Notes: a model not told the origin generated them from the sequence alone. A DNA stretch of 64,000 bases from Mobula hypostoma (GCF_963921235.1 NC_086097.1:29390001-29454000), one strand, 5' to 3'. Shown: positions 57,101 through 63,100, numbered from the stretch's first letter. Numbers and translations: made by a program.

Positions 57101-60100
57101 ATTGGCCTTTATTAATCAAAGTATTGAGTATAAGAGCTGGAATGTTATGATGAGGTTGTATAAGGCATTGGTGGGGCCGAATCTGGAGTATTGTGTTCAG
57201 TTTTGGTCACCAAATTACAGGAAGGATATAAATAAGGTTGAAAGAGTGCAGAGAAGGTTTACAAGGATGTTGCCGGGACTTGAGAAACTCAGTTACAGAG
57301 AAAGGTTGAATAGGTTGGGACTTTATTCCCTGGAGCGTAAAAGAATGAGGGGAGATTTGATAGAGGTATATAAAATTATGAAGGGTATAGATAGAGTGAA
57401 TGCAAGCAGGCTTTTTCCACTGACGCAAGGGGAGAAAAATACCAGAGGACATGGGTTTAGGGTGAGGGGGGAAAAGTTTAAAGGGAACATTGGGGGGGGC
57501 TTCTTCACACAGAGAGTGGTGGGAGTATGGAATGAGCTGCCAGACGAGGTGGTAAATGCGGGTTCTTTTTTAACATTTAAGAATAAATTGGACAGATACA
57601 TGGAGGAGGTGTATGGAGGGATATGGTCCGTGTGCAGGTCAGTGGGACTAGACATAAAATGGTTCGGCACAGCCAAGAAGGGCCAAAAGGCCTGTTTCTG
57701 TGCTGTAGTTTCTATGGTTAATTCCTCTATTGATAGCTATTAGGAACTGTACTACAGAGGTATTGGTAGTATTCTAATTTAATCTGCATATAATTTAAAT
57801 ATATCAAATTGTTACTCACTTAAATAGTAGTTTGTCTCTTTTTTTAATATACTGTATACCTTTTAACTATTTCCATGAATCTTCAGCTAACTGGGGCCAG
57901 CTGCTCAATTTGGCCAAAATACACCGGTCCCGATGTCCCAATTAACTAGAATCACTGTATTGATCTTTTAAAAAGACAATTGAAAAATAACATTTCTAAA
58001 TAGTGCTATTATAACTATTTACTATCCAAATACTGAAGTATACAAGGCTGCAAGGATCTCAAAATGTATTATTGAGTGTCATGTGTTTGTGTAACCATCT
58101 AGCTGGTGCCAAGCCATGCAGGTCGTTTCCTGTAAAAACATCTCACTGCTCTTGGGATGTAAAGATAATACCACTCATGTGGTAGTAAAGTTAATCATTA
58201 TATCTATTTATTATGGGTGGGGGTTAAATTGAAAGGCAGCACTGCATGCCATGTGCCAACACATGTGCCATAGGTTTACCACACCTGATAGCTGTTGTCA
58301 TTTTAAGATTTTTAAAAAATAAAATGAATACTGAATACATTTTGGCATACTATACCATGTCATTAAAAGTTCAGTATGCTGCCTGCTAGCAGCAAACTGA
58401 TCAAACATTTCCTAGTGAAAGATTGCTGTTAAGTGTAGCCGAGTTAAAATGTCATTTTAAAATATTTAAATCATTTATGCTTTATCAGAGGAAACACAAG
58501 TCTCAGCAATTCTTGCCAGATGCAATAAAAATTTCAATATTATTCCCAGTCTCTCCACCCACAGGATTAGACAAATCATTCAAGTTGACAAGTTCAATAA
58601 CACAAATGAACTCCATGTTTAACAAAGAGCAATAATGGCAAATGAAGCCCTGTCGTGAAGCTTGAAGTCTGAAAACTTGCTTGCATCGTGCCAAAGGGAG
58701 GCAAGCATAGAAAAAGTAAAAGAGAAACAGCTGCTTCACTTCTTTTTGAACATAGGCAGTAACATGCAGATTCACGGGGCGAGTCCAGTCAGATGGAGAA
58801 TGATACAGGTCTACACTGGTGCCATGCAAGATGATGGCTCCATTCAAAGACATTCTGTTTTCATTTGGATTGCTTTAACCTCAGCATTACATACCCGATT
58901 CAAATTCATTTAGTTAATTTGATTGCATGGCTATCAGACAGCCCAAATGGAATGATTGGCAATGCTCTGTTTCTATCAGAATGTAGATTATACTATCTAC
59001 ACTGCAAGATGGTGCACATCATTTAAGTATAAACAGTATTCATACATCACACATAGAGAATCTAAGAAAAGCAACATTAATACAGCCCTTTAAAGTATTT
59101 GCTGAAATTTATGTAAAGTCCAAAAGGCAGGACTTGTTACTGAAGATGCTAAGACAAAGGAATTAAAAATGCACAGCAATGCTTAAGTCAAGTGATTCTC
59201 ACAACATGCTGGAGGAACATAGCAGATCGGGCAGCATCCGTGGAAACGATCAATGTTTCGGGCCGGAACCCTTTGTCAGGACTGTAGAGGGAAGGGGCAG
59301 AGGCCCTATAAAGAAGGTGGGGGGAAGGTGGGAAGGAGAAAGCTGGTAGGTTCCAGGTGAAAAACCAGTAAGGGGAAAGATCAAGGGGTGGGGGAGGGGA
59401 AGCAGGGAGGGAATAGGCAGGAAAGGTGAAGAAGGAATAGGGGAAAACACAATGGGTAGTAGAAGGAGGTGGAGCCATGAGGGCTTGCGTGACATTGATA
59501 TAAATTCAGATATATTAAACAGGTTAGCGAAGTTTATATGTATATAAGTGTGGAAATATAGAAACCAAGCTTCTTCAAGCCTGGGGGTAAATAGATAAAG
59601 TCTTACAGTGATGGAGTAAAGCTCAGTTCAGTTCGTGGTATTGAGTCGAGTAGTGATGGAGAGAGAGAGATATTTGTAATCCAGGGTAAAAGTCAAGAGA
59701 AGGCAATTATTATTATTATTATTATGATTATGAGGACACGCAGTCCCCTTTTATTGTCATTTAGTAATGCATGCATTAAGAAATGATACAATGTTTTTCC
59801 AGAATGATATCACGAAAACGCATGACAAACCGACTTAAAAACTAACAAAAACCACAAAATTATAACATATAGTTACAACAGTGCAAAGCAATACCGTAAT
59901 TTGATAAGAACAGACCATGGCACAGTAAAAGTCTCAAAGTCTCTCGAAAGTCCCATCATCTCACGCAGACGGTAAACCTCCAGCACCACCAACTTGCTGA
60001 TGCAGCATCCCGGAAGCATCCGACCACAGTCAGACTCCGAGTCCGTCCGAAAACTCCGATCCTCCGACCAGCTCTTTGACACCGAGCACCATCTCTGCTG

Positions 60101-63100
60101 AGCGCTTCAACCCCAGCAACAGGCGATAGGCAAAGCTGAGGATTTGGGGCCTTCGTCTCTGGAGATTCTCGATCGCACAGTAGCAGTGGCAGCAAAGCAG
60201 GCATTTTAGAAGTTATTCCAGATGTTCCTCTGCGCTTCTCATGGCTGTCTCCATCAAATCCGGATTGTGCACGGCCCCCTAGTTACACATAATCGATATT
60301 CATTTGGAACAGCCGTGCACGCTGCCATCTTCTCATCCTCCCACTATATCGATATTCCACAGATTCCACGACAACAATACAAAATAACAATAGTAGTAGG
60401 TTTTATCTCCAAAGTTGCTCCACTCCACACACAAAATATCACCGACAGTGATCTTCAATGAATATCCTTCCAACAGAAGTGATACCACACCCGAAATCAG
60501 TTATGGGTCATTCCAAAGTGGTGGCCACAGGATACTCACACAGAATCCACATAGGGATTATCACCAACAGTAGCTTATCACTGAGGGGACCCTCTTCAAG
60601 GGAACCAACTCCAAACACACAATGTGATAGCCACATATCCAGTTCCATGACATATGAAATAACTCCAACAGTGATCTGCCACGCGGTGCCTTTCTTCAGT
60701 GAGCTACAACACCCAATCAAAGGTAACACGTGGTATTCACAAAGGTACTCCCTTCACCAGAGAACCCACTCTTGTGGATTAACTACGTGACAGTCACACC
60801 TTCGTATTCAAATGGAACTCAAACTTACCCCTCACGGGCTACTTAGAGAAAGAGTCCAAACAGTGACCTGTTTGTCACTAGGTTTCTTCTGTTTCAAACC
60901 TTCCCCTCGCCTCTTCTCTTCCTTTAAAGTCACCGAATGTGACCACAAAAAAGAGACGTTTTCTGTGATGGAGTTATCAACCCAGGCAAGGGTTGGACAC
61001 ACGAATAACTCCCCACTGGTCACACCTTTTCCACACTGTGAGAGCCACTGATTGATTCACCTGACCAATCCTCCCAACACCCACCTTTCTGTGGGCACAC
61101 AAAGCTCATCCAGTATCCAAAAACATGTGTCTGTCAGTCTATCATCTGACCTTCTATTTATTTCACCATGCTGAACACTAGCTGTCCATCAAGTAGCTCC
61201 TCCCTTCTCTCTCTGTAAGAACACAGAAGCTGGCAGTGTCCTTGCAAAAGTGTAAACATACTGCAGAGAAACGATAACACCATCTCAAAGCAGTCTTCGC
61301 CCCCCCCCTTAATAACAAGGTGTTTGTGTTGTACAACTCTTCTCTCTTTTTAAAGGTATACTCCATCAAAAATATGACCCCTAGGGGTACCATAACAATA
61401 ATGTGAATACTATTGAGTCTCAGCTAGGGAAAATCTCTCAAACCTCCATCAACTGGGCTCTGGTCTACCTTCTAGTACCATCTCAGTGCAGACTGGCACA
61501 CTTTCTCCGATTAGCATCAGGAGTTGCTCGGGATTTCATAAGAAACAGATTTATACATGCTCTCCACATCCATGCTGACCTTTCTGTTCATCAAGACTTA
61601 TCCCATTTACCTGCATTACAGCCTTGATGTCCCATACCTTGCCTATTGAAACACTAGCCTAGATGTTACCTAAACAGTGATTGTATCCAATTCTATCAGC
61701 TCCTTTGACAGTGAGTTCCACATATCAGCTAATCTGTGCAAAAAAAAACTTGTGCTTCAAATCCTTTTTATCGAATCCTCCTCCTCACCTTAAACCAACC
61801 TTAAGCCAATGCCCTTTTTTTTTTAAAATACCCTTATCATTAGGAAAAGATTCCACCGACCCGATATATGCATCCCTCTCCCCACTTTGCTCCAGTCTAT
61901 CCAATCTCTCCTCATAGCTAAAGTACTTCAATCCAGGCAACATTCTGGTGAACCTGTCAAGTGCAACTACAGCCTTGGTAGAATCAGGCAACCAGAACTA
62001 CCCAGAGTACTACAAGTACAATCTCAATGTTCTGTAAAGCTTCTCCAAAGATATGCTGGTTGTTAGGTCACAGTGAAGGGTGGATGATGGGAGAATCAGG
62101 GGTGGGGGGGGTGGTTCTATGAACAGACATACAATTGAAAATCAGTTACAAAAAAATAATAGATTGATGGGTTGACTTTAATGGACGCCGATGTCATAAT
62201 CCAATAATAAATATGAAAAATCTTCATACAAACTTTTCCATTTTAACATCCTATTATCTAGTTAAAAAGAAAACAATGCAAAACTGCACACACAAATCCC
62301 ACAGTATCACACAAAAATCAGTTGCAATTACAGCTCCAATTTAGTCAAATTCCTGACAAAATACAAATTTATTTAACCTTTATTTTTGATGTTCTAAAAT
62401 CCTATACGGTATTCTTAATTAAGTTACATGTACACCCTAACCTCGTTATATGCGTCTTCAGACTATGCGGATTCACAGTTATGCCAGGAACCTATTTCTA
62501 CCAACGTCTCGTTATATGCATCCAAAATTCACAGTTTGCGAGGAGCAGTGCCTTCCCGCCAATATAAGTCACAAGCGCACGCTTCACAGTCTCGCTGTTG
62601 GGACGAGAAGCACCGCTTTCCCGCCAATACAAGTCAGGTGCACACGCCTCACAATTTCACTCCCGCCACTCTCGCATTGGTTTTGGCAAGGCCCGGATGC
62701 GCGATCTTAAACTTTTGTTGGTTTTACCTACGGTGTAGTGATTTTGTGCTTGAAATATTTAACTATGCCTCCTAAGTGTCCAATGTCATGTCTTGGGCCA
62801 TCAGCCGAGTGGCAGAGAACCGCTTTAACACTTGAAAAAAAAGTTGGAAATTATAAACAGCGTGGCATCAGCTGAAGGTAACACAGCTCTGGGACGCTAC
62901 TGCCAGGAACAAAATCTTAAACATTTGGACAGCATTCATCCTAACATAACAGTGCGTTTCCTGCCGCTTAACACAACATTGCTGATTCAACCACTCGACC
63001 AGTGTGATCCATTCAAGGCGTACGTATTTTTTTTACAGCGAACTATCTCCCAGATGCTGCAAGCAACAGACGACTTTGAAAATCCCAGGAGTTTACCAAC

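Follow-up and report, generated by a model that had tools for sequence, protein, structure and literature searches.

A sense-oriented solo long terminal repeat in intron 5 of ray DICER1, and an annotated Dicer isoform that begins at the next exon

Could a ray have arrived at a shortened Dicer by the route known from the mouse, with a long terminal repeat (LTR) feeding a new 5' exon into the gene? The textbook example of a transposon that reshaped a core enzyme of RNA silencing is mouse DicerO, which is considered restricted to rodents (PMC10964541, PMC5538554). The question is raised by intron 5 of DICER1 in Mobula hypostoma, which lies in a stretch of 64,000 nucleotides (GCF_963921235.1, NC_086097.1:29390001-29454000), hereafter called the window. 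A first-pass annotation of this stretch had described an LTR-like copy reading in the DICER1 direction, with a TATA-like word and a splice donor, and had proposed that its splicing to exon 6 would yield an independently evolved DicerO-like protein. Compared with its relatives in the genome, the feature can be identified as a solo LTR of an abundant family of about 1.36 kb. We lean towards regarding it as a passive intronic relic, and a functional DicerO-like role for it appears highly improbable. The protein that such splicing predicts is nonetheless annotated in this species as an automated model.

DICER1 occupies the minus strand of the window. Stop-to-stop frames put the exon encoding DECH near 63.9 kb, with the following one at 51913, and the translations of the window exons are identical, letter for letter, to the protein annotated by NCBI as Dicer isoform X1 of Mobula hypostoma (P0192). 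Exon borders were set so that the exon model reproduces this protein exactly, which gives the following structure.

68679-68566 (window coordinates), minus strand: DICER1 exon 2, coding part, 114 nt
65104-64942 (window coordinates), minus strand: DICER1 exon 3, 163 nt
64315-64185 (window coordinates), minus strand: DICER1 exon 4, 131 nt
63955-63821, minus strand: DICER1 exon 5, 135 nt, residues 137-181, DECH included
51913-51753, minus strand: DICER1 exon 6, 161 nt, first codon ATG (Met182); 4/4 RNA runs join 63821 to 51913
50728-50557, minus strand: DICER1 exon 7, 172 nt
46720-46248, minus strand: DICER1 exon 8, 473 nt

Intron 5, with GT..AG borders, is 11,907 nt long, and exons 7 and 8 together span 645 nt in frame. 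The donors of exons 2 to 6 read, in order, GTATGT, GTAAGT, GTAATC, GTAATG and GTAAGT. It had been claimed that the LTR lies in intron 5 and that the exon at 51913 is in phase 0 and begins with ATG; the first is confirmed by the positions of exons 5 and 6 and the second by the exon model, since it reproduces the annotated protein. The last codon of exon 5, directly before the intron-5 donor, is GAG (Glu181, 63821-63823); the corresponding residue is Lys (in EIMK) in 14/14 other chondrichthyan Dicers examined, including that of M. birostris.

The ATG that opens exon 6 was considered as a special adaptation and this was rejected, the methionine being ancestral. Among 120 Dicers returned, 99 were pattern-matched, and the residue at the exon-6 start was most often L (69), then I (18), M (6), K (4), T (1) and V (1). 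Those six with M come from cartilaginous fishes, Amia, gar and Huso (sturgeon), and Met was found at this place in 15/15 members of the chondrichthyan cluster examined. Looking for the exon-6 ATG in related species, a check suggested with the original proposal, therefore finds it present, and also finds it ancient and so ordinary.

Two segments of intron 5 (60345-61400 and 59492-59710) align with a second copy at 12090-13450, with 90-91% identity. The two copies, their parts and the adjoining repeat are the following.

12090-13450, minus strand: LTR copy 1, full length 1361 bp, sense to DICER1, in a downstream intron, GTAC repeats on both flanks
59498-61400, minus strand: solo LTR copy 2, family LTR positions 1 to about 1254, insertion inside, 3' end absent
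60345-61400, minus strand: LTR segment A, about LTR positions 1-1044, 89.9% identity over 1065 columns to 12407-13450
59711-60344, minus strand: inserted non-LTR retroelement tail, 634 bp, (ATA)n end, sense AATAAA, not in copy 1
59498-59710, minus strand: LTR segment B, 91.4% identity to 12191-12409, holds the family 3' TATATA
59198-59483, strand unassigned: repeat of about 290 bp beside the truncated LTR end, starting 14 bases past it

Copy 1 lies, with its AATAAA intact, inside a 15.8-kb intron bounded by exons near 11.1 kb and 27.1 kb. A search of the genome (3.48 Gb, 200 contigs) returned at least 4070 first-look candidates of the family, and the 40 that were scored showed 84-91% identity. 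Nine copies were aligned with their flanks: the LTR starts with TGTTAT in 9/9, ends with GTGACA or GTGACT in 8/9 (L010 ends with GTGAAA) and is bordered by 4-bp target-site duplications, which are perfect in 6/9 and carry one mismatch in 3/9. Among 28 copies examined, no two have flanking sequence in common directly beside the LTR, so that all 28/28 look solo, and a search of 28 copies for a provirus or an internal region found none. Mean pairwise identity over 30 aligned rows was 0.895 (range 0.863-0.932, 435 pairs), indicating that the family is old. The divergence of about 10% between copies suggests that the intron-5 insertion is old as well and may be shared with other myliobatiform rays.

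The orientation of the family was read from its end module. AATAAA stands at position 1275 of 1361 in 24/28 rows holding the region, and TATA[TA]A at position 1206 in 21/28. Copy 1 carries TATATA at 1206 and AATAAA at 1275, 69 nt apart, with CA sites and a GT-rich stretch after AATAAA and the LTR end at 1361. Such spacing of TATATA, AATAAA and LTR end, with R of about 60 nt, is the usual retroviral U3-R-U5 layout. No TATA-AATAAA module was found on the opposite strand. Judged from this AATAAA, CA and GU-rich end module, the LTR very probably lies on the minus strand, sense to DICER1, in agreement with the direction first proposed. The family does not fit MaLR/ERVL membership, with an LTR of 1361 bp, duplications of 4 bp and a donor-like site at position 572 of 1361; the MaLR/ERVL class typically makes a 5-bp target-site duplication.

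The feature in DICER1 intron 5 is thus one copy of this old and abundant solo-LTR family, in sense orientation and damaged by insertion of the 634-bp retroelement tail and by loss of the last 107 bp beside the repeat of about 290 bp. The intron-5 copy reads TGTTATGG at its 5' end, and the TATA-like word, the donor-like site and both acceptor-like sites discussed below all fall within its segment A. Family homology ends at 59498; the final 107 bp, AATAAA included, are gone from this copy and were found nowhere else when sought across the window. The lost piece holds the poly(A) signal and R/U5 of the LTR. For the repeat to which the 634-bp insert belongs, 8858 first-look candidates were counted (40 scored, 90-93% identity), and for the repeat of about 290 bp 3622 (40 scored, mostly 93-94% identity over query positions 15-300). 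The extent first given for the copy, 59498-61397, was nearly right, as was the loss of the AATAAA-bearing end segment present in copy 1; the insertion at 59711-60344 had not been separated out.

Five short sites in this copy bear on its possible use by the gene.

61261-61270, minus strand: acceptor-like ttctctgcag/T, 26/30 rows
61213-61220, minus strand: acceptor-like tcttacag/A, 24/30 rows
61161-61154, minus strand: TATA-like word ATAAATAG, LTR position 240, 24/30 aligned rows
60831-60823, minus strand: donor-like GGG/GTAAGT, LTR position about 572, exon end would be 60829
59541-59546, minus strand: TATATA of the LTR 3' module, kept in the intron-5 copy

The TATA-like word, which had been placed at about 61154-61161, is present at 61161-61154. 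The donor is also present with its putative exon end at 60829, and it is not perfect as had been claimed, fitting 7/9 consensus positions. GTRAGT is found at the donor place in 25/30 rows, with other copies reading mostly G/GTGAGT. The first-pass annotation had itself named a donor generic to the family as a ground for abandoning its proposal, and in its family part this is what the alignment gives. In the window GGTAAGT was observed 7 times, with 6.86 expected, and 59/100 shuffles reached 7. By these comparisons the TATA-like word and the donor are inherited family features that do not stand above chance, and both words came with the founder sequence of the family.

About 630 bp separate the donor from the downstream TATATA (1206)-AATAAA (1275) module of the family, a position that would put it in U3, so that ordinary LTR-initiated RNA would not contain it. 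Retroviral R lengths range from tens of nucleotides to about 250 nt; if ATAAATAG at position 240 served as the retroviral promoter, an R of about 1 kb would be needed, far past these lengths. The native core promoter of the LTR is probably the TATATA at 59541-59546.

RNA contigs over the intron were taken from four runs (X1-X4) of one organism and one study, in which all sampled exon-8 words were present. The kind of the runs was guessed, although their contigs are spliced, and tissues are not given; the contigs were placed on 49300-64000, drop rare variants and cannot show starts. In each run (4/4) one long contig joins 63821/51913, skips 11,907 nt at GT..AG and continues to exon 7, indicating that the main messenger RNA splices straight across the LTR; the whole of intron 5, LTR included, is removed from it. 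The joint 60829/51913 is not among the 15 joints listed out of 60 found, and no loose end occurs at 60829 or 51913 among the 24 listed out of 775; as contigs lose rare variants, the missing joint counts neither way, and the missing loose ends likewise count neither way. At 60905 and 60909 every covering contig differs from the intron-5 copy (3/4 runs with any cover), which assigns the coverage of the putative LTR exon to other copies of the family. Unique intronic pieces with a depth of 2-6 are scattered over intron 5 (for example 58347-58863 and 61481-61696) and are read as background from precursor RNA, not as exons. As a separate observation, contig depth over 60593-61083 is about ten-fold higher in run X1 than in the other three runs, all of it from other family copies by the letters at 60905 and 60909; some family copy is therefore strongly represented in that sample.

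These results led us to favour the LTR as a passive relic. Several observations weigh against this reading. The exact sequence from Met182 to the end (1738 aa) is annotated as NCBI 'endoribonuclease Dicer isoform X2' of Mobula hypostoma (P0193, XP_062901402.1), an automated model located on the same 256-Mb contig with its protein start at window position 51913. An equivalent truncation is absent from the protein collection for 5/5 other elasmobranchs (the sister species Mobula birostris, Hypanus/Hemitrygon, Narcine, Cetorhinus and Hemiscyllium), which suggests a lineage-specific 5' exon. The intron-5 copy is alone in having changed GTGAGT to GTAAGT (G-to-A) and in carrying an extra G; of the five sense GTRAGT sites in the 11,907-nt intron, solely the one at 60829 has G at -1, and this donor equals or exceeds the donors of DICER1 exons 2-6 in closeness to consensus. 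With the sense AATAAA gone, read-through meets one obstacle fewer. Finally, LTRs acting as promoter and first exon are well documented in mammalian oocytes (PMC5538554, Franke et al. 2017).

What could supply the 5' end of isoform X2 is limited by the splice routes. Exon 5 cannot directly precede exon 6 in this isoform, because exon 5 has in-frame Mets. With exon 4 or exon 2 joined to exon 6 the reading frame is preserved and Met1 would be retained; the exon 3 to 6 join has a stop 4 codons upstream, with no ATG after it, and its protein start would therefore also be Met182. Three sources are thus left for isoform X2: an alternative exon within intron 5, a non-coding exon farther upstream, or skipping from exon 3 to 6. 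If the LTR is a passive relic, the 5' end would derive from another exon or from exon skipping. The first-pass annotation had predicted that an LTR exon joined to exon 6 would encode a Dicer without the helicase through DECH; the predicted protein is thus annotated, and nothing links it to the LTR.

As a tentative possibility, isoform X2 may be a by-product of annotation without a biological role, arising from a rare exon 3 to 6 skip or a low-level intronic start, with the coding sequence assigned as the longest downstream open reading frame. The exon 3 to 6 junction would act in this way, as its upstream stop makes the coding sequence fall to Met182, and N-terminally truncated Dicer models exist in other annotations, for example cheetah isoform X3 (P0055). 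Against this, the truncation is absent for 5/5 other elasmobranchs. Gnomon variants, moreover, normally need read support for their specific introns, and we count this against a by-product.

A direct contribution of the LTR is conceivable and, in our judgement, doubtful. The LTR would provide the 5' exon of isoform X2 through the 60829 donor, either as a first exon from a cryptic start near 61130, about 25-30 nt past ATAAATAG, or as a cassette beginning at 61260 or 61212. Given the acceptor-like sites of the family, cassette exonisation is as conceivable as first-exon use. The cassettes would measure 432 nt (61260-60829) and 384 nt (61212-60829) and meet a stop in the exon-5 frame at codon 24 and codon 8, respectively. 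An in-frame TGA stands two codons before the 60829 junction with no ATG between them, so that an RNA joining the LTR to exon 6 would start translation at Met182. With the upstream frame closed in these ways, residues 1-181, which carry the helicase motifs to DECH, would be lost, and isoform X2 is exactly Met182 to the end. The junction context GGG/ATGT has a purine at -3, 60829 is the best sense donor of the intron, and the truncation is found in 0/5 other elasmobranchs. There is also the precedent of the mouse, where MTC and MTA LTRs lie in Dicer1 (PMC6944382, PMC5538554). Against these points, no result ties isoform X2 to the LTR, and the donor and the TATA-like word are family-wide, with thousands of copies carrying both. 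The donor precedes the native promoter module of the LTR, and two upstream ATGs (open reading frames of 6 and 29 codons) occur in the putative LTR exon. For any unspliced RNA, the sense AATAAA of the insert would follow 1.1 kb downstream. The same protein would also result from skipping exon 3 to 6 or from a non-coding exon farther upstream, and the exon-6 ATG is ancestral. The wider proposition, that the LTR with its strengthened GTAAGT donor is the 5' exon of isoform X2 and that a cartilaginous fish has independently evolved a transposon-derived truncated Dicer, cut one exon earlier than DicerO and keeping the HEL1 motif-III segment, seems unlikely.

Very improbable is a read-through RNA driven from near 59520 by the native 3' promoter (TATATA, 59546-59541) and spliced to exon 6 from a donor within the adjoining repeat or within unique intron sequence: TATATA is kept and AATAAA lost, the layout fits the 69-nt TATA-AATAAA spacing of the family and MaLR donors are reported at the LTR 3' end downstream of the start (PMC5538554), but there is no sense GTRAGT between 59520 and 57821, the next sites (57820, 56128 and 53991) are each weak on the exon side, and no expression evidence is specific to this place.

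Comparison with known truncated Dicers delimits what an LTR-fed ray product would be. The arrangement resembles mouse DicerO in having, ahead of a Dicer exon, a donor-bearing sense solo LTR within one of the early introns of the gene, and in a product that is an N-terminally shortened Dicer without the DECH box, in the ray a predicted one. It differs in position, as the mouse MTC LTR lies between Dicer1 exons 6 and 7 (PMC8069103; PMC6944382), in intron 6, and the ray LTR in intron 5, one intron upstream. DicerO and the engineered mouse deltaHEL1 allele, in which a tag is fused to exon 7 (PMC9645528), both begin with exon 7 and lack HEL1 entirely, whereas the ray product would keep exon 6. As a consequence of the upstream position, the Met182 product, lacking residues 1-181, retains 54 HEL1 residues (aa 182-235), including LGLTAS. 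The residue borders of the engineered N1 deletion are not given in the accessible text of PMC10907635. Of the DicerO-like design first suggested, the geometry holds, with a sense LTR upstream of the HEL2i exons; the likeness does not extend to complete loss of HEL1 or to the same intron.

The elements themselves are also different. The ray LTR is 1.36 kb long, with 4-bp duplications and a mid-LTR donor, unlike MTC, a MaLR element with its donor at the 3' end; LTR-driven expression is known in the mouse, and the ray case has been read from sequence only. The MTA LTR (promoter O2), a further insertion in mouse Dicer1 intron 6, shows that independent LTRs in one Dicer intron can each give a low-level truncated Dicer (PMC6944382, PMC5538554). 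Unlike the ray LTR, MTA is rodent-specific and of the MaLR class, and its expression has been demonstrated experimentally. More generally, ERVL/MaLR LTRs active in oocytes provide a start site and a splice donor, and sometimes an AUG, which is the mechanism invoked for the ray (PMC5538554). In these elements, however, the donor is near the 3' end, downstream of the start site, and there is no splice acceptor (PMC5538554), whereas the ray family has a mid-LTR donor together with acceptor-like sites. The oocyte DicerO protein is reported as likely mouse-specific (PMC10964541).

Two further Dicers are relevant. AviD is a natural helicase-trimmed Dicer of mammals that lacks HEL2i through skipping of exons 7 and 8 (PMC11707545), and the 645 nt of the corresponding ray exons would permit the same in-frame skip; it arises, though, by internal exon skipping with no new 5' end, and a different subdomain is removed. 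In the predicted isoform X3 of Acinonyx jubatus Dicer (P0055), an alternative N-terminus of 11 residues is attached precisely at the exon-6 border (…/LCENCPSCPR), so that for a mammal, too, the homologous intron has been given a modelled 5' exon. Unlike the putative ray exon it brings its own start codon, and it is known as a prediction only. No truncated Dicer of sharks or rays, and no LTR-fed truncated Dicer outside rodents, was found in the literature searched.

Other repeats were observed in the window. Within intron 5, a 450-codon open reverse-transcriptase frame of a long interspersed element (LINE) lies at 56391-57743 on the plus strand, antisense to DICER1, with very high contig depth in 4/4 runs. 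A repeat of about 1.2 kb is present in three copies (155-1411, 37471-38845 and 54298-55325; 60-94% identical), the third of which is in intron 5 and has a plus-strand open frame of 162 codons. At 48070-49182, in the intron that separates exons 7 and 8, there is an array of 48-bp tandem repeats (18 overlapping 300-nt copies), open in several frames on both strands. Young tandem duplications occupy 13588-18650 and 20212-25428 inside one DICER1 intron, with units of about 3.3 kb (94-99% identical) and about 2.6 kb (about three copies, 98-100% identical).

A solo LTR in an intron is ordinary; if the link to isoform X2 holds, an LTR-fed truncated ray Dicer would be an independent instance of the mouse case with a different cut. 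It would mean that this route to stronger RNA interference is recurrent in vertebrates. Having lost residues 1-181, the protein would also be a differently cut natural variant with which to probe the role of HEL1, and would serve as a natural experiment on the extent of HEL1 loss that is needed to unlock the processing of long double-stranded RNA. If the LTR is passive, which we hold to be more likely, it is an ordinary intronic repeat, and the annotated isoform X2 remains the useful part.

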